Below are positions 4,655-60,913 of a stretch of 64,000 bases of DNA, in pieces (position 1 is the stretch's first letter; every line of letters begins with the position of its first letter). A program made the position numbers and the translations under genes. Origin of the DNA: Acidobacteriota bacterium (lineage in GTDB: Bacteria; Acidobacteriota; Thermoanaerobaculia; Gp7-AA8); the NCBI GenBank assembly GCA_019244185.1, contig JAFATB010000006.1, positions 384,001 through 448,000 of the forward strand, given 5' to 3'. Under the pieces are notes generated by a model, which had not been told where the DNA came from, made no database searches, and was given only the letters and a program-made list of their open reading frames with translations.

Positions 4655-5137
4655 TTACTGGCGCAGCTTGATGACGGCGGTCTCGACGAGCTTGTCGCCC
4701 GGCAGTCCGCTCTGCCACGCGGTGGCGCGCACGCTGCCCGTCTCGCTCATCGTGCCGAACGCGGTGCGCACGCGGAAGCGAACCGTCGAACGCTCGGCCG
4801 GCTGGATGTTGCCGAACGTGAAGCGATAGAGGTTCGAGCCCGGCGAGTGCATGACGTTGATGCCGCGGTCGTTGGTCTGATCGAGCACGATCAGCTGCGA
4901 CGGCAGCTCGACCTCGAGCAGCACGTCCTGGATGTTGTTCACGCCGGCGTTCGAGATCGTGACGTCGAGATTGTCGACGCCCTGCTCCGGCAGATCGTCC
5001 GGATGCGCGATGTTGAGCTTGAGCAGCTGTCCGCGCGTCGTCACGGCCATGCCGCTGCTCTTGCACGCGCCCGCGGTGAGCAGCGCCAAGGCGAGCACGA
5101 CCATCGTGCCGATCGTCAGAATCTGTTTGCGGTTCAT
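4655..5137 (-). CDS. Putative lipoprotein with an Ig-like (DUF11-like) domain
   Basis: Signal peptide with lipobox-like AGA-C; beta-rich VTISNAG..L..ELPS..L pattern. Confidence 0.7.
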   Translation of the reverse strand: MNRKQILTIGTMVVLALALLTAGACKSSGMAVTTRGQLLKLNIAHPDDLPEQGVDNLDVTISNAGVNNIQDVLLEVELPSQLIVLDQTNDRGINVMHSPGSNLYRFTFGNIQPAERSTVRFRVRTAFGTMSETGSVRATAWQSGLPGDKLVETAVIKLRQ

Positions 5138-5238
5138 TCAAAATCTCCTTCTGTCGCGCGACCGCTGGACTGCGGCCGCTGAGCGGTGTTATTAGCAAAC
5201 TTGGGACCGGCACGAGAGGTGCTGGGCTCGCCCGCGCT

Positions 5239-6180
5239 ATGGAGTACTTCATCGGCGTCGACGGGGGCGCCTCGAAAACCGCCGCGATCGTCGTCGATGA
5301 AAGCGGCCACATCCACGGCCGCGGTCTCGCCGGCGGCTCGAACCATCTCCGCGTCGGCATCGAGGAAGCAACGCGCAACATCGAGCGCGCCGTGAACATC
5401 GCCCTCGTCGAGGCCGGCATCGCGATTCGCAACGTCGAGTACGCGTACTGCGGCGTCGCCGGCTCCGATCATCCCGCGCACCGCCAGCGCGTCATCGATT
5501 CGCTGAAGATTTTCTTTCCGCGCGGCAACTTCATCGTCGACACCGACGCGCGCATCGCGCTGACCGGCGCGGTCGGCTTCGGCGCGGGCGTGGTCGTGAT
5601 CGCGGGCACGGGCTCGGTCGCGTTCGGCCGCAACGAGGGCAACGGCGAAGCGCGCGCCGGCGGCTGGGGTCCCACCCTGGGCGATGAAGGCAGCGGGTTC
5701 TGGATCGCGCGCGAAGGCCTCTCCGCGATCGTGCGCGCGCACGACGGCCGCGGCTTCGCGACGAAGATGACCGATCTGCTCTGCGACGACTACGACATGT
5801 GCAGCCCCGAGGAGCTGCCGCGGTTCGTGTACGCAACGACGACGCATGCGGATGACATCGCGCGTTACGGCAAGCTCGTCATCGAAGCAGCACAGGCGGG
5901 CGACGACATCGCGCGAGACATCCTCGCGCGCGGCGGCTCCGAGCTCGCGGAGTGCGTGCTCGCGGTCGCGCGCAAGCTGCATCTGACGGACGTGGCGTTT
6001 CCCGTCGCGTACGTCGGCGGCGCGTTTCACGCGGGCGAGCTGCTGCTCAATCCGATGCGTCTGCGGTTGCAGCGCGACGCGCCGGGAGCGTCGCTCGTCG
6101 CGCCGTTGAAGCCTCCCGTGGAAGGGGCGGCGATGATGGCGATGAAGGCGGCCGAGAAGCCGCGCGCGGGTCGAGCCTAG
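5239..6180 (+). CDS. BadF/BadG/BcrA/BcrD ATPase family sugar kinase (GlcNAc/MurNAc kinase-like)
   Basis: IGVDGGASKT, IAGTGS, RAGGWGxxLGDEGSG motifs. Confidence 0.9.
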   Translation: MEYFIGVDGGASKTAAIVVDESGHIHGRGLAGGSNHLRVGIEEATRNIERAVNIALVEAGIAIRNVEYAYCGVAGSDHPAHRQRVIDSLKIFFPRGNFIVDTDARIALTGAVGFGAGVVVIAGTGSVAFGRNEGNGEARAGGWGPTLGDEGSGFWIAREGLSAIVRAHDGRGFATKMTDLLCDDYDMCSPEELPRFVYATTTHADDIARYGKLVIEAAQAGDDIARDILARGGSELAECVLAVARKLHLTDVAFPVAYVGGAFHAGELLLNPMRLRLQRDAPGASLVAPLKPPVEGAAMMAMKAAEKPRAGRA

Positions 6181-6242
6181 TCGACCCTGAGGGCATAGCC
6201 GATTCGCACGTGCGGCTGCACTGAAGTACATTTCGCGCGGCT

Positions 6243-7241
6243 TTGCGGTTTCTCCACGCGATCGATCTGCGGCTGCTGCTCGTGCTCTTCGCGCTGCTCG
6301 TCAGCGTGGAGATCCTGCGCGCGTCGGGCATGCTCGATCTGTTCGTCGCGCGCTCGGTCGCGCACTTTCATTCGACGCGCGGCTTCGCGTGCGCGCTGAT
6401 CGCGTTCGGCGGCATCCTCGCGACGCTCGTGACGAACGACGTGGCGCTCTTCGTCGTCATCCCGATCACGATCATCGCCAGCCGCTTCACCGACTTCGAC
6501 GTCGAAGACGCGGTCGTGCTCGAGATCATCGCGGCGAATCTCATCGGCTGTCTCACGCCGCTCGGCAATCCGCAGAATCTGTTTCTCTTTCATCGCAGCG
6601 GCTGGAGTGCGGCGCACTTCGTCGCGACGATGTCGCCGTTCGTCGCGTGGTCGCTCATCGGCATCGCGCTCGCCGTCGTGCTCCTCGGCCGCTCGCGTCC
6701 GATGCAGCGCACTGACGTCGCTCTGCCGCCGCGGGATGCGCGCGCGGCGATGGTCGGTGGCGCGTGCTTCGTGCTCGTGCTGCTCGAAGTCGCGCGCATC
6801 GTTCCCGCATGGGTCGCCGCCGCGGCGGCGCTCGTCGCGGGCATCGCGTTGCTGCGCCGCCGTATGCTGCGCATCGACTACTCGATCCTGCCGATCTTCC
6901 TCGTCGCGTTCGTCGTCGTGGAGGCGCTGCGCCCGCTCGCGCGCGGGATCGAGACGAACGTCTACTTCGCCTCGATCGCCGCGTCGCAGATCATCAGCAA
7001 CGTCCCCGCGGCCGTGCTGTTCGCGCCGTTCGCGCGCGGCGACTGGCGCGCGTTGCTCTACGGCGTGAACGCGGGCGGCTGCGGCACGATCGTCGCCTCG
7101 CTCGCGAACCTCCTCGGCTGGCGCATCTATGCGCGCGAGTCGAACCGCGATCCGCACTTCTTCCGCCGCCTCACCGCGATCAACGCCGCGTTTCTGGCGT
7201 GGATCGCGGCGGGCGGCTGGCTGTTGCTGCGCTGGCTCTGA
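6243..7241 (+). CDS. ArsB/NhaD/SLC13 family anion permease
   Basis: VTNDVAL, ANLIGCLTPLGNPQN, SQIISNVPA, ASLANL; multiple TM segments. Confidence 0.85.
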   Translation: MRFLHAIDLRLLLVLFALLVSVEILRASGMLDLFVARSVAHFHSTRGFACALIAFGGILATLVTNDVALFVVIPITIIASRFTDFDVEDAVVLEIIAANLIGCLTPLGNPQNLFLFHRSGWSAAHFVATMSPFVAWSLIGIALAVVLLGRSRPMQRTDVALPPRDARAAMVGGACFVLVLLEVARIVPAWVAAAAALVAGIALLRRRMLRIDYSILPIFLVAFVVVEALRPLARGIETNVYFASIAASQIISNVPAAVLFAPFARGDWRALLYGVNAGGCGTIVASLANLLGWRIYARESNRDPHFFRRLTAINAAFLAWIAAGGWLLLRWL

Positions 7242-7242
7242 A

Positions 7243-7875
7243 TCAGAAGCGCAGCTGCAGGCCGGCGGAGACGATGATCGGGCTGATGTTGAAGCGCCCC
7301 TGCGTCGTGCCGCCGGTAGCGACGACCGCCGTCGCGTTCGATTCGAGCGGCACGTACTTCACGTCGCCGTTGATGCCCCAGCGGCTGCCGAGGCGGATGC
7401 CGAGACCCGCGTTCACGGCAAAGCCCGCGTCGTCTTTGATGTCGATGTCGTTGATGCCGGAGACGCTGTTGTCGGCGGAGTTGTCGAAGAGCACGTAGGC
7501 TGCGCCCGCGCCGATGTACGGATCGATGAAGCCGTTCGGCGCGAAGTGCCACTGCAGCACCGCGGTGAGCGGCGTCATGCGCAGGTTGCCGCCGGCCGAG
7601 GAGACCGCGTGGCGGCGGATGGTCGTGTCGGGCTCGACGCGCGATGCCGCGAACTCGGCCGAGATGTGATCGCCGAAGAAGATGTTCGCGGCGAGGCCGT
7701 AGCCGATCGTGCCGTCGAAGTCGATGTCGGCGGGATCGGCGAGGTCTTTGAACGAACCGCTGTTCGTCGGATCGACCCACACCGCGTTCGCGGTGAGATC
7801 GAAGGCGCGGTGTTGGGCGAAGGCGGCGGGAACGAGAACGAAGAGAGCGAGCAGTACGAGCCCGAGGTGTTTCAT
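7243..7875 (-). CDS. OmpW-family outer membrane beta-barrel protein
   Basis: Signal peptide, PYIGAGAAY, DVKYVPL, terminal GLQLRF. Confidence 0.85.
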   Translation of the reverse strand: MKHLGLVLLALFVLVPAAFAQHRAFDLTANAVWVDPTNSGSFKDLADPADIDFDGTIGYGLAANIFFGDHISAEFAASRVEPDTTIRRHAVSSAGGNLRMTPLTAVLQWHFAPNGFIDPYIGAGAAYVLFDNSADNSVSGINDIDIKDDAGFAVNAGLGIRLGSRWGINGDVKYVPLESNATAVVATGGTTQGRFNISPIIVSAGLQLRF

Positions 7876-8005
7876 GTCGTGCGTGCGAGGCATCACCGAT
7901 GCCAACGAAAGCAGCGTCGGCCGCAAACGCGTGTTGCGTTTGATGCAACGCGTCGAACTGAGCAACGCCCTCGCGTTGCTCGGTTCGACGGTCCGTTCGC
8001 AGGTT

Positions 8006-9688
8006 CTAGCGCCGCGCGCGCGCCGTCACGTCGTAGAACTCTTCGCCCGGAAGCCACATCGGCTTCTCCGCGGCATTCGCGGCCTCGGCGCCCAACCAGT
8101 ACGCTAGTTGACCAATCTGCACCGCGGAGCTGAAGTCCCACGACGGATCGTATTCGTCGCTGGCCTGGTGGTAATGCTTGGTGCGGTATTCGGCGACGTG
8201 CTCGCGGCCCCACGACTCCGGCTTGCCGCGCACGTCGAGTCCCTGCTTCACGGAGAACGCGGGGATGCCGGCCTTGGCGAGGCTGAAGTGATCGGAGCGG
8301 TAGTACGAGCCCTGCTCCGGCGCCTGATCGGGAACGATGGTGAGGCCGAGCGCATCGGTGACTTTCTTCGCGGTCGGGAAGAACGTCGTGTGGTCGATGC
8401 CGATCATCGTCACGCTGCCGACCGGGCCGAAGAGATCGAGCGCGTCGAAGTTGAGACCCATCGCGATCTTGCCGGCGGGAATCGGCGGATGCTGGCCGAG
8501 AAACTGCGAGCCGAGGAGACCTTGTTCTTCGGCGGCGACGGCGGCGAAGTAGAGCGTGCGCTTGTGCGGCACGGGGTTCGTCGACCAGACGCGCGCGATC
8601 TCGAGGAGCGTGGCGACGCCGCTCGCGTTGTCGATCGCGCCGTTGTAGATCGTGTCGTTCGGATCGCTCGGATCGGCGGGGCCGATCCCGAGGTGATCGT
8701 GGTGCGCGCTGTAGACCACGCCTTCGTCCTTGAGCACGGGGTCGCTGCCTTCGAGCTTCGCCACGACGTTCGCGGTGTCGAACGGACGGATCGTGCTGGC
8801 GACGTTCGCGTTGAAGCGGACATTGAGCGGCACCGGCTTGAAGTCGCGCGACGCGGCGGCCTGCGTCAGCTTGTCGAGATCGAGCCCCGCGGTCTGGAAG
8901 AGCTGCTTCGCGATCGCTTCCGTGATCCAGCCGGCGAACTGCAGGCCCGGCTGTCCCGGCTGCAGCTTCACGTACGCCTGCTCGCCGCCCCACGAATTGC
9001 GCACGACCTGCCAGCCGTAGCCGGCCGCCGGATCGGTGTGAATGAGGATCACCGCGGCGGCACCTTTCGCCGCGCCGATCTCGTACTTGTACGTCCAGCG
9101 GCCGTAGTACGTGCGCGCGCGGCCGCGGAAGAGATCCGGCTCCTGCGCGCTCGCCGGCGGATCGTCGACGAGCATCACCAGCGTCTTGCCGCGCGTGTCG
9201 AGTCCCTTGTAGTCGTCCCAGCGATACTCCGGCGCGACCACGCCGTGGCCGACGAAGACGACGTCGGAGTCGATGGAGACGTTCTCCTGCTGCGACTGAT
9301 TGCCGCCGACGAACTGGTCGCGATAGACGAGCGGTCCGAGCACGGCCGCGCCGTTCTTCGTGAACGCCGCGCGCGACTTCGCCGCATCCATGGCGATGTT
9401 CAGCAGCGAGACCTTCTGAAAGTACGTGCCGCCGTCGCCCGCGGGCTGGAGCCCCATCGCCTCGAACTGCGCGGCGATGTAGCTCGTGGCGAGCGCGTCG
9501 CCGCGCGTGCCGGGGCCGCGCCCCTCGAGCAGGTCGCTGGCGAGGAACTTCAGATGCGCGCGCACGGCGTCGCCGCGAAAGGCATGGAATGCCGTGTCGA
9601 TGGAAGGCGGGATCGGCTGTGCGGCGAGGGGGATGGCAAGAAGGAGAAGCGCGGCAATGCGGAGCATGCGAGGCGTTTTCTGAACCAT
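8006..9688 (-). CDS. M28 family peptidase with PA domain, secreted
   Basis: LASDLLEGR, SAHHDHLG, NGAIDNASG, AEEQGLLGS, RSDHFS, YHQASD. Confidence 0.92.
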   Translation of the reverse strand: MVQKTPRMLRIAALLLLAIPLAAQPIPPSIDTAFHAFRGDAVRAHLKFLASDLLEGRGPGTRGDALATSYIAAQFEAMGLQPAGDGGTYFQKVSLLNIAMDAAKSRAAFTKNGAAVLGPLVYRDQFVGGNQSQQENVSIDSDVVFVGHGVVAPEYRWDDYKGLDTRGKTLVMLVDDPPASAQEPDLFRGRARTYYGRWTYKYEIGAAKGAAAVILIHTDPAAGYGWQVVRNSWGGEQAYVKLQPGQPGLQFAGWITEAIAKQLFQTAGLDLDKLTQAAASRDFKPVPLNVRFNANVASTIRPFDTANVVAKLEGSDPVLKDEGVVYSAHHDHLGIGPADPSDPNDTIYNGAIDNASGVATLLEIARVWSTNPVPHKRTLYFAAVAAEEQGLLGSQFLGQHPPIPAGKIAMGLNFDALDLFGPVGSVTMIGIDHTTFFPTAKKVTDALGLTIVPDQAPEQGSYYRSDHFSLAKAGIPAFSVKQGLDVRGKPESWGREHVAEYRTKHYHQASDEYDPSWDFSSAVQIGQLAYWLGAEAANAAEKPMWLPGEEFYDVTARARR

Positions 9689-51839: not shown

Positions 51840-52337
51840 GTGTCGATCTACGAGCAGCTGTTCGCGCGACTGGCACAAGCGAATGTCCGATACGTCGTGG
51901 TGGGTGGAGTGGCGGTCGTGCTGCACGGGTATCTCCGCGCCACGGCGGATCTCGACCTGGTCATCGATCTCGAAGAAACGAACGCGCGCCGCGCGATGAC
52001 GGCACTCGAACGAGCGGGACTCGAGCCGCTTGCGCCGGTCCGCGCGGCAGAATTCGCGGATGCGGCAACTCGCAGACGATGGATCGATACGAAGAACCTG
52101 CGCGTGTTCTCCTTGCGCGACCCGCACGAGCCCTTGCTCACCGTCGATGTCTTTGCCGAAGATCCGCTTCCGTTCGAGGAACTCTGGACTCGATCGGCCA
52201 TCGTCCGCCTCGGCGGGTGTGACGTCCGCATCGCATCGATTGCCGATCTGCTCGTGATGAAGCGCGCAGCGGCCCGCCCGCAGGATGCCATCGACATCGA
52301 ACACCTGGAACGCATCGCGAAGGAACGCACCTCGTGA
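51840..52337 (+). CDS. Nucleotidyltransferase family protein (putative toxin)
   Basis: VVGGVAV..HG..RAT.DLD, DLL.MK....RPQD..D. Confidence 0.85.
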   Translation: MSIYEQLFARLAQANVRYVVVGGVAVVLHGYLRATADLDLVIDLEETNARRAMTALERAGLEPLAPVRAAEFADAATRRRWIDTKNLRVFSLRDPHEPLLTVDVFAEDPLPFEELWTRSAIVRLGGCDVRIASIADLLVMKRAAARPQDAIDIEHLERIAKERTS

Positions 52338-52528
52338 ACGGTGAAAAGCCCGAATCCGACGACTGGTGCGGCGACTTCGCGACCGCCAGCGGGCATGCCG
52401 CGCGTGCCGGCCTGCTCGCGACGCCCGAGCAGCGGCTCGCGTGGCTCGAGTCGATGCTGCGTCTCGCCGCGAAGAGCGGCGCGCTCGAGCGCGTGCAACG
52501 CGAGCGCAGCCGCGAACGCATCTTCTGA
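52334..52528 (+). CDS. Small partner protein (putative antitoxin)
   Basis: GTGA overlap with the nucleotidyltransferase gene; TPEQRLAWLE motif. Confidence 0.65.
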   Translation: MNGEKPESDDWCGDFATASGHAARAGLLATPEQRLAWLESMLRLAAKSGALERVQRERSRERIF

Positions 52529-52556
52529 TTGGCGCGCTTCGCGGTACGCTTGACGC

Positions 52557-53231
52557 ATGCGACGCATCGTTCTCGCGTTCCTCTGCCTCTCCGCCGCCGC
52601 GTCTCTGCGCGCCGCGAGCCTCGCCGACGAAGTCGTGGCGGCGTACGGCGGACGCGCCGCGCTCGCGAAAATCAGCGCGGTGCGCGAGACCGGCACGGTC
52701 GTGTCGATGATGCGCAGCGGCACCGGCAACACCGTGCGCACGTTCGCGTTTCCCGACCGGCTCAGCGTCGCCATCACCTATCCGCAGTCGAGCGAGCTAC
52801 GCGACGTCGACGGCGCGCGCGGCTGGCAGAACGGCAAGGAAGCGTCGGGCGCGCAGCTCGATGCGATGGCGTTGCAGGCGGCGCGGCTGAACGCGCCGCG
52901 GCTGCTCGCCGAACACGCGGCGGACGTGAAGCAGGACGGCGCCTCCAAGCTCGTCGTCACGCTGCCGCGCGGCCTAGCGCTCGCGCTGGAGATCGATCCG
53001 AAGACGCATTACATCGTTCATTCGGCCGGCACGCTCACGGGCGGCATGGCGTTCGAGACGAACTACAGCGACTTCCGCAACGTCGGCGGCGTCGTGTTCG
53101 CGTTTCACGAGGAGAACGTCGCCGGCGGCATGGCCACGGGAACGACCACGCTGACGAACGTCGAGCTGAACCCGAAGCTCGACGCAGGCGCATTCGGTCC
53201 CGACGCGGCGGCGCCGCGCCAGCGGAGCTGA
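52557..53231 (+). CDS. Secreted hypothetical protein (LolA-like beta fold)
   Basis: Signal peptide; AYGG..AL..I; YSDFR.V.GV. Confidence 0.75.
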   Translation: MRRIVLAFLCLSAAASLRAASLADEVVAAYGGRAALAKISAVRETGTVVSMMRSGTGNTVRTFAFPDRLSVAITYPQSSELRDVDGARGWQNGKEASGAQLDAMALQAARLNAPRLLAEHAADVKQDGASKLVVTLPRGLALALEIDPKTHYIVHSAGTLTGGMAFETNYSDFRNVGGVVFAFHEENVAGGMATGTTTLTNVELNPKLDAGAFGPDAAAPRQRS

Positions 53232-53232
53232 C

Positions 53233-54261
53233 GTGTCCGCGAACTGGCTGCTGTACGGCGCGAACGGCTACACCGGCGAGCTGATCGCGCGCGAGGCCGT
53301 GCGCCGCGGCATCCATCCGATTCTCGCCGGCCGCAGCACGGAGAAGATCGAGCCGCTCGCGCGCGAGCTGCAATGCGAATCGCGCGTCTTCGACGTCCGT
53401 AAGCCCGATCTGCGCGGCGTTGCGCTCGTGCTCCACTGCGCCGGGCCGTTCGTGCACACCAGCGCGCCGATGGTCGACGCGTGTCTCGCGTCGGGCGTGC
53501 ACTATCTCGACATCACCGGCGAGATCGACGTCTTCGAAGCAGTGCTCGCGCGCGATGCCGAGGCGAAGCAGCGCAACGTGGCGCTCCTCCCCGGCGTCGG
53601 CTTCGACGTCGTTCCCACCGACTGTCTCGGCGCGATGCTGCATGCGCGCATGCCCGACGCCGTCGAGCTGTGGCTCGCGTTCGACTCGCGCCGCGGCGGC
53701 ATCAGCCGCGGCACGCTGCGCACGATGCTCGAAGGCCTGGGCAAGGGCGGCGCGATTCGCCGCGACGGGCAGATCGTGCACGTGCCGCTCCTGTACGACG
53801 TCCGCGAAATCCCGTACGCAAGCGGCCCGCGCCTGTCGATGACGATTCCATGGGGCGACGTCGCGACGGCGTTTCATACGACCGGCATTCCGAACATCCG
53901 CGTCTACAACGCCACGCCGCCGTCGACCATCCGCCGCCTGCGCCGCACGCGCTATTTCCTGCCGCTGATGCGCATCACGCCGGTCAAGCGCGCGATGCAG
54001 TGGATGTCGACGCGCAACCGCACGGGACCGGGCGAAACGCAGCGCGCGCAATCGCGCGTCGAGTTGTGGGGACGCGTCGTCAATGCACGCGGCGAAGAAG
54101 CCACAATGACCCTGTCGACGCCCGAGGGATATTCATTCACCGTGCTGTCATCGTTGGAGGCGGTGCGGAGAATTCTGCAGGAGCCGCGCGCCGGCGCATT
54201 CACACCCGCGCGCGCCTTTGGAATGAATTTCGTCAATGAGGTATTGACAAACGCACAATAG
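53233..54261 (+). CDS. Saccharopine dehydrogenase-like NAD(P)-binding oxidoreductase
   Basis: YGANGYTG, HCAGPF, HYLDITGE, GFDVVPTD, GAFTPA. Confidence 0.9.
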   Translation: MSANWLLYGANGYTGELIAREAVRRGIHPILAGRSTEKIEPLARELQCESRVFDVRKPDLRGVALVLHCAGPFVHTSAPMVDACLASGVHYLDITGEIDVFEAVLARDAEAKQRNVALLPGVGFDVVPTDCLGAMLHARMPDAVELWLAFDSRRGGISRGTLRTMLEGLGKGGAIRRDGQIVHVPLLYDVREIPYASGPRLSMTIPWGDVATAFHTTGIPNIRVYNATPPSTIRRLRRTRYFLPLMRITPVKRAMQWMSTRNRTGPGETQRAQSRVELWGRVVNARGEEATMTLSTPEGYSFTVLSSLEAVRRILQEPRAGAFTPARAFGMNFVNEVLTNAQ

Positions 54262-54276
54262 GCGCGCTATTGTGCG
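54244..54276 (+). promoter_or_regulatory. Sigma70-like promoter overlapped by a 10-bp inverted-repeat operator
   Basis: TTGACA 54244-54249; TATTGT 54268-54273; CGCACAATAG-N5-CTATTGTGCG. Confidence 0.7.
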
Positions 54277-54300
54277 CCACCCTTACAAACGACGACGAAC

Positions 54301-54381
54301 ATGATGACCAAACGCGAACAGAGATATTGGATCGGTCGACCGGAATTTCCGGGAACCGCCGGAGGTACGCTCGTGCCCTAG
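54301..54381 (+). CDS. Putative attenuator leader peptide MMTKREQRYWIGRPEFPGTAGGTLVP
   Basis: 26-codon ORF just downstream of the promoter; its 3' end is one strand of the antiterminator. Confidence 0.65.
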   Translation: MMTKREQRYWIGRPEFPGTAGGTLVP

Positions 54382-54409
54382 CCGATGCTCAGCATCCGCT
54401 CATTGCACG

Positions 54410-54448
54410 AGCCCCTTCGGTCATGACAGCCGAAGGGGCTTTTTGTTT
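54410..54448 (+). terminator. Intrinsic terminator (attenuator)
   Basis: AGCCCCTTCGG/CCGAAGGGGCT 11-bp stem + TTTTTGTTT. Confidence 0.88.
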
Positions 54449-54556
54449 GGTTTTTACTGAATTTCGAGGATGAGACCGTCCGGGTCCGGCGGCGCGCAGG
54501 TCGCTGACACTGTCGCGTTCCGTGTACGGGTTCTGACGAAGGAAGGTTGATTCCTG

Positions 54557-54629
54557 CCATGTGTAGCTCATTGGGTAGAGCGCAGGACTGATAATCCTGG
54601 GGTAGCGGGTTCGAATCCCGCCACAACCA
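54557..54629 (+). tRNA. tRNA-like RNA, anticodon GAT (Ile), with a defective acceptor stem (pseudo-tRNA or Y-RNA-like)
   Basis: Intact D arm GCTC/GAGC, anticodon arm CAGGA-CTGATAA-TCCTG, T arm GCGGG-TTCGAAT-CCCGC; acceptor CCATGTG/CACAACC pairs only 4 of 7. Confidence 0.8.
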
Positions 54630-54644
54630 TCCTTACACGCCGAC

Positions 54645-54867
54645 TGACCGCCGTTAGCGGTCACCGGCCGCGGCGTCGAATCGCGGTCAAGCCTGCCGGC
54701 GCTTCTGTAATGGCGCACCGGCAAGCGCGGAAGGAGCTCTGCAGCGCGCGTGCAGCGCGCAATGCGCTCCCACAATGCGGTGCGACGTCATTGTGGGAGC
54801 GCGCGTGGCGGCGCAGCGCTCCGCTCTGTAACGCGTGGCTTTTCCGCGCATTGGGCGCCCGGCCGGT
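54645..54867 (+). ncRNA. Candidate structured RNA or repeat element upstream of the slipin gene
   Basis: Stems TGACCGC/GCGGTCA, ACCGGCCG/CGGCCGGT (54663-54670 / 54860-54867) and 14-bp GCGCTCCCACAATG/CATTGTGGGAGCGC. Confidence 0.45.
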
Positions 54868-54894
54868 CTTATTGAGGAAAGGAGGGACCGAACC

Positions 54895-55995
54895 ATGTTT
54901 CGGCGTATGAAGATTCTTCCGCACGAGCGGGGCCTTCTGTTTCGTGAGGGCGCGTTCGCCGGCGTACTGCGGCCGGGCGTTCATTGGACGTTCGATCCGC
55001 TCCTGAAGCTGCGGCTCTTTGTCGTGTCGCCGCGCAATCCGTGGCTCGACCACCGCGACCTCGACCTCATCGTGAAGTCGGGCAAGCTCGGCGGCGAGGC
55101 CATTGTGGTCGACCTCAAGGACTACGAGCGCGCGCTCGTCTGGATCGACGGCCGCTTCGCGGCGGTGCTCGATACCGGCCTGTACGCGCTGTGGACCGTG
55201 GAGCGCGATGTGCGCGTCGAGATCGTCGACGCGCGGACGATGCGCTTCGACCACGCGGAGCTGCCGGTGATCGTGCGTTCGCGGACGGCGGCGTCCGTGC
55301 TCGAGGTCGTGCATGTGGAGGCCAACCACGCGGGACTGTGGTTCCGCGACGGCGCCTATCAGGCGACGCTCGCTCCGGGCACGTACGCGTTCTGGCGGAA
55401 CGTCGGCAAGCTGCAGGTCCAAATGGTCGATCTCCGCGAGCTGACGCTCGACATCAGCGGTCAGGAGATCATGACGGCCGACAAGGTCACGCTGCGCCTC
55501 AATGCGCTTGTCAACTACCGCGTCACCGATCCGCTGCGGTCGGTCGCGGAGGTCGACGGTGCGGCGCAGGCGCTCTACCGCGCCGCGCAGCTTGCGCTGC
55601 GCGAAGCGGTGGGCGCGAAGGACCTCGACGCGCTGCTCGTCGCGAAGGATGCGCTCGCGGGTGAGCTGTCCGTCGCGATCGCGCCGCGCGCCGCGGAGCT
55701 CGGCCTCACGGTCGTCGCCGCGGGTGTCCGCGACGTCATCCTGCCGGGCGACATGAAGGAGCTGATGAACAAGGTGACCGAGGCGAAGAAGGCCGCGGAG
55801 GCATCGCTGATCACGCGCCGTGAGGAGACGGCGGCGATGCGGATGCAGGCCAACACCGCGAAGATCCTCGAGGCGAGTCCGACGCTGATGAAGCTGAAGG
55901 AGCTCGAGGTGCTCGAGAAGGTCGCGCACAAGGCGAACCTCACCGTGGTCCTCGGCGACGAGGGCCTGGCGGACAAGGTCGTCAAGCTGCTGTAA
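54895..55995 (+). CDS. Slipin family (SPFH/Band 7) protein with repeated N-terminal beta modules
   Basis: SD AAGGAGG; HERGLLFR.G repeats, VDLRE....SGQEIMT.DKV.LR.N, RDVILPG, RREETAA.R...NTA. Confidence 0.9.
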   Translation: MFRRMKILPHERGLLFREGAFAGVLRPGVHWTFDPLLKLRLFVVSPRNPWLDHRDLDLIVKSGKLGGEAIVVDLKDYERALVWIDGRFAAVLDTGLYALWTVERDVRVEIVDARTMRFDHAELPVIVRSRTAASVLEVVHVEANHAGLWFRDGAYQATLAPGTYAFWRNVGKLQVQMVDLRELTLDISGQEIMTADKVTLRLNALVNYRVTDPLRSVAEVDGAAQALYRAAQLALREAVGAKDLDALLVAKDALAGELSVAIAPRAAELGLTVVAAGVRDVILPGDMKELMNKVTEAKKAAEASLITRREETAAMRMQANTAKILEASPTLMKLKELEVLEKVAHKANLTVVLGDEGLADKVVKLL

Positions 55996-56002
55996 CGACG
56001 CA

Positions 56003-56036
56003 GGGAGGGCAGGCCGTCCAGCGGGCCTGCCCTCCC
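56003..56036. repeat. 13-bp GC hairpin without U tract between slipin and the next gene
   Basis: GGGAGGGCAGGCC/GGCCTGCCCTCCC. Confidence 0.75.
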
Positions 56037-56051
56037 GAGGTAAAGAAGGAG

Positions 56052-56690
56052 ATGAACAAAGACAAAGTTCGGGACATGATCCGCAGCATCCTGCCGTCGA
56101 AGGCGCGGGTGGGCGCGCGGTTCGGCAAGAGGTTCGAAAAGCGGCGCGTGCGCCACGCCATTCGCGCGGCGTTGCGCGCGGGAACGTTCGACGCCGATCT
56201 GCGGCGCGACGCGGACCTCTCGACGGTCGTCTGGTGGCGGCGCACCGCCGACAAGCTCCACCCTTTCATGCGCTGGTGCCGCGCGCGCACCGCGGGCATG
56301 ACGCCGGAGGAAGCGCTCGGCTACGTGCGCGGCCTGTTGCCGCGGAATCTCATCGGCGATCACGCGTACGGACACTGGGAAGCGGTCGTGCGGCCGTACA
56401 TGGGCCGGCTGCCGACAGTTCGCACGCGGCTCGACGTCGGGACGCTCTGCACGCGTTTGCGCGCGGCGTACGAGCGCGATCCGTCGCTCGTCGGGATGTT
56501 GAACGCCGCGATCAAGAGCCGTATCGCATTCGACGAACCACGCCGGCTGCTGTTCGGCGTGCACGACATCGACGCCTTCGCACGCGACGCGCTCCGACGC
56601 GGGAGCATCGAGCTCGATTGCGCGATGGCAATCATGGAAGAGATCGAAGGGCGGCCGAACGGCCGCCCTTCCCATTTTCGCGCCGCGTGA
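56052..56690 (+). CDS. Basic hypothetical protein (212 aa)
   Basis: SD AAGGAG; Arg/Lys-rich N-terminus; no family recognised. Confidence 0.75.
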   Translation: MNKDKVRDMIRSILPSKARVGARFGKRFEKRRVRHAIRAALRAGTFDADLRRDADLSTVVWWRRTADKLHPFMRWCRARTAGMTPEEALGYVRGLLPRNLIGDHAYGHWEAVVRPYMGRLPTVRTRLDVGTLCTRLRAAYERDPSLVGMLNAAIKSRIAFDEPRRLLFGVHDIDAFARDALRRGSIELDCAMAIMEEIEGRPNGRPSHFRAA

Positions 56691-56713
56691 TATAGCGTTC
56701 CCTCAACGAACCC

Positions 56714-59700
56714 ATGTCCCTCGATCGCTTTCATCCCGTCCTCCAACGCTGGTTCTCTGACACCCTCGGCACTCCGACACCCGCGCAGCAGCAAGGGTGG
56801 TCCGCCATCCGCGAGCGCCGTCACACGCTCATCGCCGCGCCGACCGGCTCGGGTAAAACGCTCGCGGCGTTTCTGACCGCGCTCGACGACCTTTTCGTCG
56901 AAGCGCTGACCGCGCCGCTGCCTGATGAAGTGCGCGTCGTCTACGTCTCGCCGCTGAAAGCGCTCAGCGCCGACATCCACAAAAATCTCGCCGAGCCGCG
57001 CCACGGAATCCGCCGCATCGCGGAAGAACTGAACATCGACGCGCGCATCACGGCCGGCGTGCGCACCGGCGACACGACCTCGAGCGAACGCGCGGCGATG
57101 CTGAAGACGCCGCCGCACATCCTCGTCACGACGCCGGAGTCGCTCTACCTCCTGCTCACCGCCGAGCGCAGCCGCAACATGCTGCGCAGCGTGCGCACCG
57201 TGATCGTCGACGAGATTCACGCCGTGATCGGCACGCGCCGCGGCGCGCACCTCGCGCTCACGCTCGAACGCCTGCAACACGTCGCCGAAGCGCCGCTCCT
57301 GCGTATCGGACTCTCCGCGACGCAGAAGCCGATCGAAGCCGTCGCGCGCTATCTCACCGGCGGCGGCGACTGCACGATCGTCGACGAAGGCCACCGCCGC
57401 GCGATGGACCTCACGCTCGAGGTGCCGCGCTCGCCGCTCGAAGCGGTGATGTCCGCGGAAGTGTGGGAGGAGTATTACGACGCGCTGGTGCGGCTCATCG
57501 AGTCGCATCGCACGACGCTCGTCTTCGTGAACACGCGCAAGATGGCCGAGCGCGTCGCGCGTCACCTCAGCGATCGCCTCGGCGAAGACGCGGTGACCGC
57601 GCACCACGGCAGTCTCTCGAAAGAGAACCGTCTCGACGCGGAGACGCGGCTCAAAACCGGTCAGCTGAAAGCGCTCGTCGCGACGGCGTCGCTGGAGCTC
57701 GGCATCGACATCGGCCACGTCGATCTGGTCTGCCAGCTCGGCTCGCCGCACCGCATCGCCACGCTCCTGCAGCGCGTCGGCCGCTCGGGACACACCGTCT
57801 CCGGGCTGCCGAAAGGACGCGTCTTTCCAACCTCGCGCGACGATCTCTTTGAATGCGCGGCGCTGCTGCGCGCGGTCAAGCGCGGCGAGCTCGATCAGAT
57901 CGTCACGCACGACGCCCCGCTCGACGTGCTCGCACAACAACTCGTCGCCGAATCGTCGTGCGACGACTACGCGGAAGACGCGCTCTTCGCGCTGGCGAAA
58001 CGCGCGTGGCCGTACCGCGCGCTCGAACGCGGCGCGTTCGACGACGTCGTGAAGATGATGGCCGACGGCTTCGCCACGAAGCGCGGACGCCGCGGCGCGC
58101 TCATGCATCGCGACGAAGTGCACGGCAACGTGCGCGGACGCCGCGGCTCGCGCCTGCTCGCGCTCACGTCCGGCGGTGCGATCCCGGAAGTCGCCGACTA
58201 CCGCGTCGTGCAGGAGCCGGACGAGACGTTCATTGGAACGCTCAACGAGGACTTCGCGATCGAGAGCAACATCGGCGACGTCTTCCAGCTCGGCAACACT
58301 TCGTGGCGCGTGCTGCAGGTGTCGGGCGGCGTCGTGCGCGTCGCGGATGCGCACGGCGAGCCGCCGAGCATTCCGTTTTGGCTCGGCGAAGCGCCCGCGC
58401 GGAGCGACGAGCTGTCGCGCGCGGTGAGCTCGCTGCGCGCCGATCTCGAGCCGCTGCTCGACGATCGCGAGGCCGCGATCGCGTGGCTCGTCGACGCGTG
58501 CGGGATTCCGCGCGCCGCCGCCGAGCCGCTCATCGAGTACCTCGCCGAATCGCACCGCGTCCTCGGCACACTCCCGACGCAACAGACGCTCGTCCTCGAG
58601 CGCTTCTTCGACGAGTCGGGCGGCATGCAGCTCATCCTCCACGCGCCGTTCGGCAGCCGCATCAACAAGGCGTGGGGGCTCGCGCTGCGCAAGCGCTTCT
58701 GCCGGCAGTTCGATTTCGAATTGCAGGCCGCGGCGACGGAGGACGCGATCCTCTTGTCGCTCGGCCCACAGCATTCGTTTCCGCTCGCGGATGTCTTCCG
58801 CTATCTGCATCCCGCGACCGCGCGCGACGTGCTCGTGCAGGCCTTCCTCGACGCGCCGGTGTGGCAGACGCGCTGGCGGTGGAACGCGACGATCTCGCTG
58901 GCGGTGCCGCGCAATCGCAACGGCAAGAAGATCGCGCCGCAGTTGCAGCGCACGCTCGCCGACGATCTGATGGCCGCGGTGTTCCCAGACGCCGCAGCGT
59001 GCTTCGAGAACATCGGCGGCGACCGCAAGATCCCCGATCATCCGCTTGTCAACCAAGCCGTGCGCGACTGCCTCGAGGAAGCGATGGACTTCGACGGCCT
59101 CGCGCGCGTGCTGACCCGCATTCACGCGGACGAGCTGACGCTCGTCGCGCGCGATACGCCCGAGCCGTCGCCGCTCGCGCACGAGATCCTCAACGCGCAG
59201 CCGTACGCGTTTCTCGATGATGCGCCGCTCGAGGAGCGCCGCACGAACGCGGTCTACACGCGCCGCGTCGCCGACGCCGCGTCCGCGCGCGAGCTCGGCG
59301 CGCTCGACCTCGCGGCGATCGAACGCGTGCGCGACGAAGAGCGGCCCGATCCGCGCGATGCGGACGAGCTGCACGACGCGTTGCTGACGTTCGGCTTTCT
59401 CACGGACGAGGACGCGCCGCACGAGCTCTTCGACGCGCTCGCCGCGGCGAAACGCGCGACGCGCGTGCACGGACTCTGGTTCGCCGCGGAGCGCCTGCCG
59501 GAGCTCCTGGCCATTCATCGCGTCGAGACGACGATCGCGCCGCCGGCATCGCGCCTCACGCGCACGTGGTCGCGCGAGGAAGCGCTCGTCGAGTTGCTGC
59601 GCGGACGGCTTTCGCTCGTCGGACCGGCGACGTCTGACGCGCTCGCGTCGCTGCTCGCGGTACCGCAATCGAACGTCGACGCCGCGCTGCTCGCGCTCGA

Positions 59701-60913
59701 AGGCGAGGGCGCGATTCTGCGCGGCAACTTCACGCCCGGCGCGTCGCAGCTCGAATGGTGCGACCGGCGCCTGCTCGCGCGCATCCACCGCTACACGCTC
59801 AATCGTCTGCGCGCGGAGATCGAGCCGGTCACCGCCGCCGACTTCACGCGTTTCCTCTTCGCGTGGCAGCACGTGACGCCGTCGTCGCGCCTCAGTGGCA
59901 TCGATGGACTGCAGGAGCTGCTCGCCCAACTCGACGGCTTCGAACTCGCCGCAAACGCGTGGGAGCGCTCGGTGCTGCCCGCGCGCATGGACCGCTACGA
60001 CGCGTCGATGCTCGACACGCTCTGCTTCGCCGGCGTGGCCGGCTGGGCGCGCGTCTCACCGCCGACCGGCGCCGCGCTGCCCGTCGGCGCGACGCCGATC
60101 GCGCTGTTTCTCCGCGAGCACGCGGCGACGTGGCAGTCGCTGCGCGAGACGGCGCCGGTCGCGTTGTCCGAACAAGCGCAACGCGTCGTCGACACGCTTC
60201 GCGCGCGCGGCGCGTCGTTCGCGCGCGAGCTCGCGGCGCTCTGCGAGCTCGACGAAGCCGCGCTCGAACGCGCGCTCGGTGAGCTGGTCTGCGCGGGACT
60301 CGTGACGTCCGACGGCTTCGCCGGTCTGCGCTCGCTCGTGCGCGCGTCGCACGAGAAACGCGCGCGCACCGACGTCGCGGGACGGTGGTCGCTGCTCGCC
60401 TCCGACGCGAACGGCGACGACGCGCTGGAGCTGCAGGCGCGCACGTTCCTCCGCCGCTACGGCATCGTCTTCCGCCGCCTCCTCGCGCGCGAGTCGAACG
60501 CCGCGCCGTGGCGCGAGCTCGCACGCGTCTACCGCCGCATGGAAGCGCGCGGCGACCTGCGCGGCGGCCGCTTCGTCGCCGGCATGCCCGGCGAACAGTT
60601 CGCGCTCCCCGACGCCGTCGAACGCCTGCGCGAGATCCGCCGCACCCCGCACGACGGCACGCTGGTCGTGCTCTCCGCCGCCGACCCGCTCAACCTCACC
60701 GGCACCACCTCGCCCGGCGATCGCATCCGCGCCACACCCGGCACGCGCATCGCGTACCGCGACGGCGTGCCGGTGTCCGTGATGGAAGGCGACTACGTGC
60801 GCCCGCTCACGGACATCGAATCGAACGACGCGCTCACCGTCGCCGCCGCGCTCGCGGGGCGTGCGGTCGCGGCGGGGCGGGGGTGGGTGGGGCGGGGGTG
60901 GGTGGGGCGGTGA
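56714..60913 (+). CDS. lhr: Lhr-family ATP-dependent helicase with extended C-terminal domain
   Basis: APTGSGKT, YVSPLKAL, TTPESL, DEIH, LSAT, SLELGID, QRVGRSGH; RGGRFV..GEQFA C-terminus. Confidence 0.92.
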   Translation: MSLDRFHPVLQRWFSDTLGTPTPAQQQGWSAIRERRHTLIAAPTGSGKTLAAFLTALDDLFVEALTAPLPDEVRVVYVSPLKALSADIHKNLAEPRHGIRRIAEELNIDARITAGVRTGDTTSSERAAMLKTPPHILVTTPESLYLLLTAERSRNMLRSVRTVIVDEIHAVIGTRRGAHLALTLERLQHVAEAPLLRIGLSATQKPIEAVARYLTGGGDCTIVDEGHRRAMDLTLEVPRSPLEAVMSAEVWEEYYDALVRLIESHRTTLVFVNTRKMAERVARHLSDRLGEDAVTAHHGSLSKENRLDAETRLKTGQLKALVATASLELGIDIGHVDLVCQLGSPHRIATLLQRVGRSGHTVSGLPKGRVFPTSRDDLFECAALLRAVKRGELDQIVTHDAPLDVLAQQLVAESSCDDYAEDALFALAKRAWPYRALERGAFDDVVKMMADGFATKRGRRGALMHRDEVHGNVRGRRGSRLLALTSGGAIPEVADYRVVQEPDETFIGTLNEDFAIESNIGDVFQLGNTSWRVLQVSGGVVRVADAHGEPPSIPFWLGEAPARSDELSRAVSSLRADLEPLLDDREAAIAWLVDACGIPRAAAEPLIEYLAESHRVLGTLPTQQTLVLERFFDESGGMQLILHAPFGSRINKAWGLALRKRFCRQFDFELQAAATEDAILLSLGPQHSFPLADVFRYLHPATARDVLVQAFLDAPVWQTRWRWNATISLAVPRNRNGKKIAPQLQRTLADDLMAAVFPDAAACFENIGGDRKIPDHPLVNQAVRDCLEEAMDFDGLARVLTRIHADELTLVARDTPEPSPLAHEILNAQPYAFLDDAPLEERRTNAVYTRRVADAASARELGALDLAAIERVRDEERPDPRDADELHDALLTFGFLTDEDAPHELFDALAAAKRATRVHGLWFAAERLPELLAIHRVETTIAPPASRLTRTWSREEALVELLRGRLSLVGPATSDALASLLAVPQSNVDAALLALEGEGAILRGNFTPGASQLEWCDRRLLARIHRYTLNRLRAEIEPVTAADFTRFLFAWQHVTPSSRLSGIDGLQELLAQLDGFELAANAWERSVLPARMDRYDASMLDTLCFAGVAGWARVSPPTGAALPVGATPIALFLREHAATWQSLRETAPVALSEQAQRVVDTLRARGASFARELAALCELDEAALERALGELVCAGLVTSDGFAGLRSLVRASHEKRARTDVAGRWSLLASDANGDDALELQARTFLRRYGIVFRRLLARESNAAPWRELARVYRRMEARGDLRGGRFVAGMPGEQFALPDAVERLREIRRTPHDGTLVVLSAADPLNLTGTTSPGDRIRATPGTRIAYRDGVPVSVMEGDYVRPLTDIESNDALTVAAALAGRAVAAGRGWVGRGWVGR
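60874..60910 (+). repeat. G-rich 15-bp tandem duplication at the lhr 3' end
   Basis: GGGGCGGGGGTGGGT x2 + GGGGCGG, encoding GRGWV x2. Confidence 0.8.

Follow-up and report, generated by a model that had tools for sequence, protein, structure and literature searches.

The 64,000-nt window of Acidobacteriota DNA analysed here (the whole stretch, to which coordinates refer unless stated otherwise) holds, between a saccharopine-dehydrogenase-like gene (53233-54261, Pfam PF03435) and an SPFH/Band-7 gene on the same strand, an intergenic region with a promoter, a short open reading frame (ORF), an intrinsic terminator and a long non-coding RNA. A sequence-only reading had proposed that the segment at 54301-54448 is a ribosome-dependent transcription attenuator with a 26-codon leader peptide. 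Our folding and comparative analyses suggest that this segment is probably a promoter-proximal conditional terminator, that is, a transcription attenuator. That the ribosome is the deciding factor is a further step that we infer, and a ribosome-dependent attenuator seems to us plausible, if somewhat short of probable; slowed translation as the physiological signal is speculation. Outside this intergenic region, the window has a GC content of 65-72%.

Two competing folds behind one promoter

Transcription of the region would begin at a sigma-70-like promoter on the plus strand (54244-54280), which consists of TTGACA (54244-54249), an 18-nt spacer, TATTGT (54268-54273) and GCGCCAC (54274-54280), with 10 of 12 matches. 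Its -35 box overlaps the last codons of the dehydrogenase gene, and a sigma-70 pattern scan of 53000-56000 returns TTGACA-18-TATTGT as the only promoter-like site. The transcript would start near 54280; transcript starts and ends throughout are predicted positions.

Downstream on the same strand, a pattern scan independently located an intrinsic terminator (54409-54455) with a 13-bp stem at 54409-54441, a 7-nt loop (54422-54428) and a T-tract (54440-54455). Helices were identified with RNAduplex and minimum free energy (MFE) folding, and the pairings listed in the sequence-only reading are all recovered. CCGGAGG (54359-54365) pairs exactly with CCTTCGG (54414-54420) through seven RNA pairs, one of them G-U, and GCTCGTGC (54369-54376) is the exact reverse complement of GCACGAGC (54405-54412). 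These two helices nest correctly and together make up a predicted antiterminator of 16 pairs, running from G54358-U54421 to C54376-G54405 with an RNAduplex energy of -28.9 kcal/mol. The 5' strand of this antiterminator (54358-54376, plus strand) contributes 8 + 8 pairs around a 3-nt bulge and, as had been claimed, coincides with the last seven codons of the ORF (54358-54378). The 3' strand (54405-54421, plus strand) is shared between the two folds, as from 54409 onward it is also the terminator's 5' arm; pairing of 54358-54376 with 54405-54421 covers the 5' arm of the 54409-54441 stem, and the proposed sequestration of that arm is borne out. The whole alternative hairpin (54355-54422) has a predicted energy of -37.4 kcal/mol, against -24.9 kcal/mol for the terminator hairpin, and when the RNA is cut before the terminator's 3' arm, its MFE structure is exactly this antiterminator. 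A small hairpin in the antiterminator loop (54380-54400, plus strand) is present in both folds; its sequence is not conserved in the related genome described below.

The antiterminator strand has a second potential partner. A local CCGGA/UCCGG hairpin (54340-54352, plus strand) ends in AUUUCCGG (54345-54352), and this 3' half can pair instead with CCGGAGGU (54359-54366), forming a helix that is predicted to act as an anti-antiterminator. The full-length MFE structure pairs 54345-54352 with 54359-54366, while the MFE structure of the truncated RNA has the local hairpin 54340-54352 instead. In a co-transcriptional MFE series, the AUUUCCGG/CCGGAGGU helix is the MFE structure for 3' ends from 54366 to 54416, and the full antiterminator displaces it only after 54421 is transcribed. 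Co-transcriptional folding had been suggested as a check on the attenuator; the series adds this early helix, which the sequence-only reading had not listed, to the two exclusive folds.

We measured arm sequestration as the MFE minus the MFE with the terminator's 5' arm forced single-stranded, before the 3' arm exists. The window value is -18.4 kcal/mol; when the 125 nt upstream were dinucleotide-shuffled 1000 times, none of the shuffles reached it (mean -5.8, standard deviation (sd) 2.4). Since shuffles flatter GC-rich DNA, natural hairpins were added as a second control: among 164 terminator-like hairpins from both strands of the window and of 80 related loci, the window hairpin ranks fourth, with 4 of the 164, itself included, at or below -18.4 (mean -8.5, sd 4.6). 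The pairing is clearly unusual for GC-rich DNA, yet not unique. Predicted energies for RNA 54280-54441 are -58.6 kcal/mol in the best antiterminated and -58.1 in the best terminated structure, with pair probabilities of 0.25 for the antiterminator and 0.75 for the terminator. Near-equal fold energies of this kind are, on the folding model, the balance needed by a switch.

The counterpart in a related genome

Relatives were gathered from genome contigs with the dehydrogenase protein as query, which yielded 600 stretches and 492 relatives, and 80 loci were kept; the best of these are Thermoanaerobaculia metagenome-assembled genomes (MAGs) with up to 70% identity to the dehydrogenase, which places the window in or near this class of Acidobacteriota. 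DNA similar to window 54262-54900 was found by blastn in only 1 of the 80 loci, which we call L001 (DASPHC010000004.1, a Thermoanaerobaculia MAG, cited in its own numbering). L001 is also the only one of the 80 in which tblastn finds the SPFH gene (72% identity, starting at 8631). Its promoter, TTGACA-18-TACCAT followed by GCGCCAC, lies at 7879-7915, its ATG ORF of 23 codons at 7919-7990 and its terminator at 8015-8045. On either strand, the combined TTGACA/-10/GCGCCAC motif occurs only in the window and L001 among the window and the 80 loci. The GCGCCAC just 3' of the -10 box is identical in the window (54274-54280) and L001 (7909-7915); a GC-rich stretch at that promoter position marks stringently controlled stable-RNA promoters.

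The L001 arrangement bears on the plainest explanation of the window hairpin, that it is only the terminator of the saccharopine-dehydrogenase-like gene and that the rest is coincidence. In the window this gene is on the same strand and ends 148 nt before the hairpin, and its transcripts would meet the terminator. In L001, however, minus-strand genes separate the end of the dehydrogenase gene (5011) from the start of the module (7879), some 3 kb away. As the L001 module sits before the SPFH gene and after minus-strand genes, the hairpin is not simply a dehydrogenase terminator; furthermore, the module is absent downstream in the other 79 dehydrogenase loci, and a conserved promoter stands between gene and hairpin in the window. 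The sequence-only reading had held out this explanation as the one that might undo its own, and the L001 arrangement contradicts it, leaving it very unlikely in our view. From this comparison, the module appears to travel with the SPFH gene rather than with the dehydrogenase.

The conditional terminator itself has a counterpart in L001. The alternative hairpin there is in the same register, pairing 7964-7977 (the counterpart of the antiterminator 5' strand) with 8015-8028 through 13 pairs plus 2 at -22.3 kcal/mol, and it is the MFE structure of the truncated RNA. Both genomes share the 9-mer GCCGGAGGT, which is in the same frame and is read Ala-Gly-Gly in both ORFs (GCC GGA GGT); it is the only conserved block inside the leader. 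Between the window and L001, the inner antiterminator helix differs at both partners of two pairs (C-G becoming U-A, G-C becoming C-G), two outer pairs are altered on one side with pairing kept, and 0 of the first 13 pairs are broken. Where the shared strand has gone from C to U, a G-to-A change in the terminator's 3' arm restores the pair, and the antiterminator accommodates the U as G-U, which suggests that both folds are maintained. These changes were taken from per-sequence pair lists, as MAFFT alignments of the leader put homologous helices out of register. The compensatory changes give, by sequence comparison, the best evidence that the alternative fold is functional.

The minus-strand neighbours of the L001 module (4950-7686) are an MbnB/TglH/ChrH-family gene and a 239-aa ORF. 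The former belongs to a family of enzymes that modify ribosomally synthesized and post-translationally modified peptides (PF05114, E 1.3e-59), and the window has no counterpart at that position. Directly upstream of the L001 promoter, between it and the 239-aa ORF, lies an inverted-repeat region (7770-7860) with short ATAGGAC/GGGAC-type units.

The short ORF and the question of the ribosome

The window ORF (54301-54381, plus strand) comprises 26 codons plus TAG and is a candidate leader ORF without a Shine-Dalgarno sequence; an ORF this short falls below the size that usual gene finders report. In both genomes (2 of 2), the ORF stop falls 3-10 nt past the antiterminator strand, and both ATG ORFs begin within 45 nt of the predicted transcript start. 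Shuffled leaders contain such an ORF in 526 of 5000 cases for the window (10.5%) and 263 of 5000 for L001 (5.3%), or jointly in about 0.55% if the two are independent, under a placement criterion chosen after seeing the data.

In the mechanism that we consider for a ribosome-dependent attenuator, the TTGACA promoter would produce an RNA with two mutually exclusive folds. The terminator fold (54409-54441) would release a short RNA of about 165 nt, while 54358-54376 holding the terminator's 5' arm would let polymerase read on. A ribosome at the last seven codons or the stop would cover the antiterminator strand, and the terminator would form; a ribosome held at roughly codons 8-15 would instead cover AUUUCCGG, freeing the antiterminator strand and allowing read-through. 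With no ribosome, the early AUUUCCGG/CCGGAGGU helix would probably trap the RNA in the terminating path. The signal would then be slow or stalled translation generally, rather than a shortage of one amino acid, and the gene switched on would encode an HflK-like membrane scaffold. A non-coding leader of roughly 620 nt would begin with the attenuator, include a tRNA-like module and lead into the SPFH/Band-7 gene.

A simple model of ribosome occupancy, in which a 27-nt mask was moved along the ORF codon by codon, follows this logic in the window. For a ribosome in the early or middle part of the ORF, predicted sequestration lies between -17 and -21 kcal/mol, apart from P sites 54328-54331, where only 54340-54344 is masked and the value weakens to about -14; from P site 54358 onward it amounts to no more than -3 to -7. 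L001 gives a weak version of the same pattern: the values run from -11 to -14 in the middle of the ORF and come to about -9 at its end, a different upstream partner taking over there. The earlier claim that a ribosome reaching the stop favours termination, and that an early stall favours read-through, is thus reproduced as a position dependence by footprint masking in the window, for an ORF whose translation is putative.

The composition of the ORF can be read in more than one way. Its codons are indeed unusual for this DNA, as the sequence-only reading had noticed: AGA and CGA each occur at 0.6 per 1000 in five window genes, and GGT, GGA, TTT and TAT at 3.9-5.9. That reading took these codons to suggest sensing of general ribosome or tRNA stress; they are most simply explained by ordinary non-coding composition (GC content at third codon positions (GC3) of 0.58 as opposed to 0.90), and less readily by a purpose-built sensor. 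The peptide has no amino-acid run, as stated earlier, and neither does the L001 peptide; an arrest motif of the RLR type is absent from both.

Several observations weigh against translation of the ORF and, more broadly, against a ribosome-dependent attenuator. The two peptides are no more alike than chance, with 398 of 2000 shuffles reaching their score, and the start codons are unaligned, the L001 ATG lying opposite a non-start triplet of the window. The predicted transcript start also lies about 21 nt before the ORF in the window but only about 4 nt before it in L001. As to conservation of the ORF, on which the sequence-only reading had made its proposal depend, both genomes have an ATG ORF, with dissimilar peptides and unaligned starts. 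A Shine-Dalgarno sequence is missing before the ORF in the window and in L001 alike, whereas AGGAGGG precedes the SPFH gene in each. Little weight attaches to this, since 4 of 7 neighbouring genes, at our own unverified start positions, have none either. GC3 is 0.58 in the window ORF and 0.57 in that of L001, compared with 0.90 in 3549 codons of five genes, and an index similar to the codon adaptation index gives 0.28 (window) and 0.21 (L001), compared with 0.36-0.76 for eight genes. The predicted switch is much the weaker in L001. Its terminator state is favoured by about 10 kcal/mol (-52.5, against -43.0 for the antiterminator), with a probability of about 1.0, and its arm sequestration of -9.2 is ordinary: it is equalled or exceeded in 34 of 1000 shuffles, and among the 164 natural hairpins in 75. 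The anti-antiterminator helix of the window is not conserved in L001: competition there comes from a local hairpin immediately 3' of CCGGAGG and from a helix that closes the junction, whereas the window anti-antiterminator lies 5'. The SPFH gene begins 450 nt past the terminator and could have a promoter invisible to a sigma-70 scan. All folding results are thermodynamic predictions. Covariation across relatives, another check that had been suggested, yields the two compensatory antiterminator pairs in L001; the comparison comprises two sequences only, window and L001, too few for covariation statistics.

Much of this would fit a conditional terminator in which the ORF is untranslated and the trigger is the binding of a protein or an RNA to the conserved GCCGGAGGU strand, or else transcription speed, nucleotide level or temperature. 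All of the evidence for two folds applies equally to such a switch, and the non-coding composition, dissimilar peptides, unaligned starts and missing Shine-Dalgarno sequence are what it would lead one to expect; the 9-mer GCCGGAGGT, as the lone conserved block of the leader, would suit a binding site. However, no riboswitch, T-box or protein-binding leader family was matched at E values up to 10, and Rfam gives no riboswitch or T-box aptamer upstream of the terminator at that threshold. The leader is poorly conserved outside its helices, too variable there for a ligand-binding aptamer, and window and L001 have both retained an ORF that stops shortly after the antiterminator strand. We regard a trigger of this other kind as somewhat unlikely. 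If instead the ORF encoded a functional small protein of 23-26 aa with its own promoter and terminator, its presence in both genomes would be explained, and both peptides start M-x-T-K and contain A-G-G. Their overall similarity is at chance, though, the A-G-G is accounted for by the RNA helix, and neither the non-coding composition nor the missing Shine-Dalgarno sequence suits a protein gene, so that a functional small protein is scarcely credible.

Downstream RNA, the SPFH gene and known systems

Beyond the terminator, about 450 nt without a protein gene lead to the SPFH gene, and this DNA is a conserved, covarying non-coding RNA; similarity to L001 is higher over window 54470-54890 than over the leader. 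Neither genome has a second sigma-70-like promoter before the SPFH gene, other promoter types being invisible to the scan. Because the sole sigma-70-like promoter lies before the terminator and the DNA after it is a conserved non-coding RNA, this RNA is probably reached by read-through.

The same facts have to be set against the simpler possibility of a stand-alone small RNA gene, about 165 nt long in the window and 135 nt in L001, with a constitutive terminator, the tRNA-like RNA and the SPFH gene being expressed separately. A promoter and terminator of its own around a non-coding stretch are indeed present, and they are compatible with an attenuator too. In both genomes a perfect TTGACA and a strong terminator bracket a short, non-coding-looking stretch, only the promoter, the terminator and one 9-mer are conserved, a pattern usual for small RNAs, and the terminator fold dominates in L001. 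The alternative pairing would then be part of the folding of the small RNA, and GCCGGAGGU may be its target-binding region. The two ideas also overlap, since in Listeria the terminated rli80 leader is seen as a small RNA that is made constitutively (PMC6310831). Yet the conserved RNA downstream would be left without a second conserved sigma-70-like promoter, a plain small RNA would need neither near-equal folds, as in the window, nor compensatory changes that preserve the antiterminator, and in window and L001 alike the module lies ahead of the SPFH gene, linked to it and in the same orientation, with different neighbours upstream. On balance we think a stand-alone small RNA unlikely.

Whatever its relation to the terminator, the downstream RNA is elaborate. 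A conserved non-coding stretch with a conserved stem (54470-54556, plus strand) lies between the terminator and the tRNA-like module, and its helices 3-5 are invariant in both genomes. The tRNA-like module (54557-54629, plus strand) matches the Rfam tRNA model with 57.9 bits, and the L001 copy (8180-8255) with 50.7 bits. Its D, anticodon and T arms are intact, with stems that are invariant between the genomes, while the acceptor stem has 4 pairs in the window and 5 in L001 rather than 7 bp, and the anticodon loops differ (CUGAUAA in the window, CCGCUAA in L001). Among true genes, the closest are annotated as tRNA-Ile, with about 77% identity. We rejected a true transfer RNA on account of the short acceptor stem and of the anticodon loop changed between orthologues. 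ARAGORN makes no tRNA call for the window module, because only four acceptor pairs can form, and its Ser(GCU) call in L001 was taken as false, no long extra arm being visible. From these sequence features, the module is probably a tRNA-derived structural or processing signal and not a decoder.

Farther downstream, an invariant block and a long irregular stem-loop span 54641-54868 on the plus strand (L001 8276-8512). The 35-nt block 54641-54675 is identical in both genomes and holds a 6-bp hairpin (54646-54662, GACCGC/GCGGTC), and an irregular stem-loop of roughly 200 nt is closed by 54663-54673 pairing with 54858-54867; this stretch may be a structured RNA domain or a protein-binding site. Across 54445-54895, the entire leader downstream of the terminator with its stem, tRNA-like arms and the 54641-54868 domain together, RNAalifold predicts 99 pairs, 17 of them changed on both sides, compared with 0-3 when partners are slid by 1-3 columns, a contrast that is inflated in that the structure was derived from the same two sequences. 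Protein coding of 54262-54894 was considered and rejected: each of the six frames scores much the same against L001 (42-56 bits), and no frame is conserved. On the antisense strand, the translations of the non-coding region in the window and L001 share an 11-residue word. Searches for known RNAs were otherwise negative: for window 52000-57000 and 54230-54900, and for L001 7800-8700, Rfam has nothing beyond tRNA at E values up to 10, and tRNA only at gathering thresholds in the whole window and 16 loci, while the 89 and 96 matching records in plasmid and phage collections all match via the tRNA-like 65-75 nt and leave the leader unmatched.

These features allow a more far-reaching suggestion, namely that the attenuator is the entry gate of a new composite leader, in which a translation-sensing switch is joined to a 450-nt RNA with a tRNA-derived processing or recognition module. 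Processing might involve, for example, a cut by RNase P or Z, after which the SPFH mRNA would begin with the invariant hairpin 54646-54662; the module would have lost its acceptor top and anticodon identity, and expression of a membrane scaffold would be tied to the translation state in Thermoanaerobaculia. We offer this as a quite improbable extension of the ribosome-dependent attenuator.

The first protein gene downstream of the terminator is the SPFH/Band-7 gene (54895-55995, plus strand; Pfam PF01145, E 7.9e-34), preceded by the Shine-Dalgarno sequence AGGAGGG (54880-54886), the two together spanning 54880-55995. The match of its product to HflK-like proteins is weak and below the curated cut-off. 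Just before the SPFH ribosome-binding site of L001 there is an AT-rich, near-perfect inverted repeat (8520-8611, AAAATTG/CAATTTT units), absent from the window. Directly after the SPFH stop in the window lies a perfect 13-bp GC-rich hairpin without a T-tract (56003-56037, GGGAGGGCAGGCC ... GGCCTGCCCTCCC); an ORF at 56052 begins 15 nt after it, with AAGGAG abutting its ATG. The SPFH gene is followed by a 212-aa ORF without assignment and then by an Lhr helicase. PADLOC gives no matches for the SPFH protein, the 212-aa ORF or the dehydrogenase, while the Lhr-type helicase (56714-60913, 1399 aa) matches DpdJ over its full length (E 0) as well as the BrxH model. This match is probably a helicase family resemblance, as no other Dpd components are seen nearby.

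If the ribosome-dependent attenuator is real, it would be an acidobacterial attenuator that senses translation generally, not one amino acid, and it would tie an SPFH (HflK-like) membrane-scaffold gene to translation stress. If the ORF is untranslated, the element would be an ordinary small RNA, or a leader with another trigger, of modest significance. To our knowledge, short-ORF terminator/antiterminator leaders are well known in Firmicutes and Proteobacteria, while RNA-level regulation in Acidobacteriota, most of them uncultured, is almost unstudied. The architecture of a terminator/antiterminator leader with a short ORF is already known. The more unusual part is the covarying leader with its embedded tRNA-like module behind the terminator, for which we found no literature counterpart among the matches listed and which deserves its own study.

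The classical comparison is with the trp, his, phe, leu and thr attenuators. In the Yanofsky model, overlapping helices 1:2, 2:3 and 3:4 compete and the end of the ORF lies over segment 2, so that a ribosome at the stop leads to the terminator and one stalled on segment 1 to the antiterminator. The window shares this logic of chained helices. Unlike the trp and his type, it has no codon run for a single amino acid and no biosynthetic or aminoacyl-tRNA operon downstream, and its segment 1 is not conserved in L001. A broader frame is offered by PASIFIC (Millman et al. 2017, PMC5314783), in whose operational definition a riboregulator is a 5' leader where an intrinsic terminator competes with another fold of similar energy. 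The window element falls within this definition, which is silent on the trigger. For the missing Shine-Dalgarno sequence there is a parallel in the leaderless polycysteine short ORFs of mycobacteria, described by Canestrari et al. (bioRxiv 10.1101/834739) as ribosome-dependent sensors that lie at or very near the transcript 5' end without a Shine-Dalgarno sequence. The L001 ORF resembles them in its start, about 4 nt from the predicted transcript start; those ORFs differ in having cysteine runs and in controlling access to a ribosome-binding site, and so translation, rather than a terminator.

Of known systems, the closest is rli80-hflXr of Listeria monocytogenes, for which Duval et al. 2018 (PMC6310831) describe a short ORF, an antiterminator and an anti-antiterminator, each validated by mutation. 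The rli80 ORF has 14 aa with an RLR arrest motif and responds to lincomycin and erythromycin; stalled ribosomes favour read-through, and the terminated leader accumulates as a small RNA (same source). Set against that description, the window has neither an RLR motif nor a conserved peptide and is known here from sequence alone, its ORF covers the antiterminator strand itself, and its SPFH product follows after 450 nt of structured RNA. It also differs from the erm and rli80-hflXr class of antibiotic-responsive leaders in that the downstream gene is not a resistance or ribosome-rescue factor. What the window appears to share with rli80-hflXr is a constitutive promoter, an intrinsic terminator, an exclusive antiterminator, an anti-antiterminator and a candidate short ORF lying over the regulatory strands.

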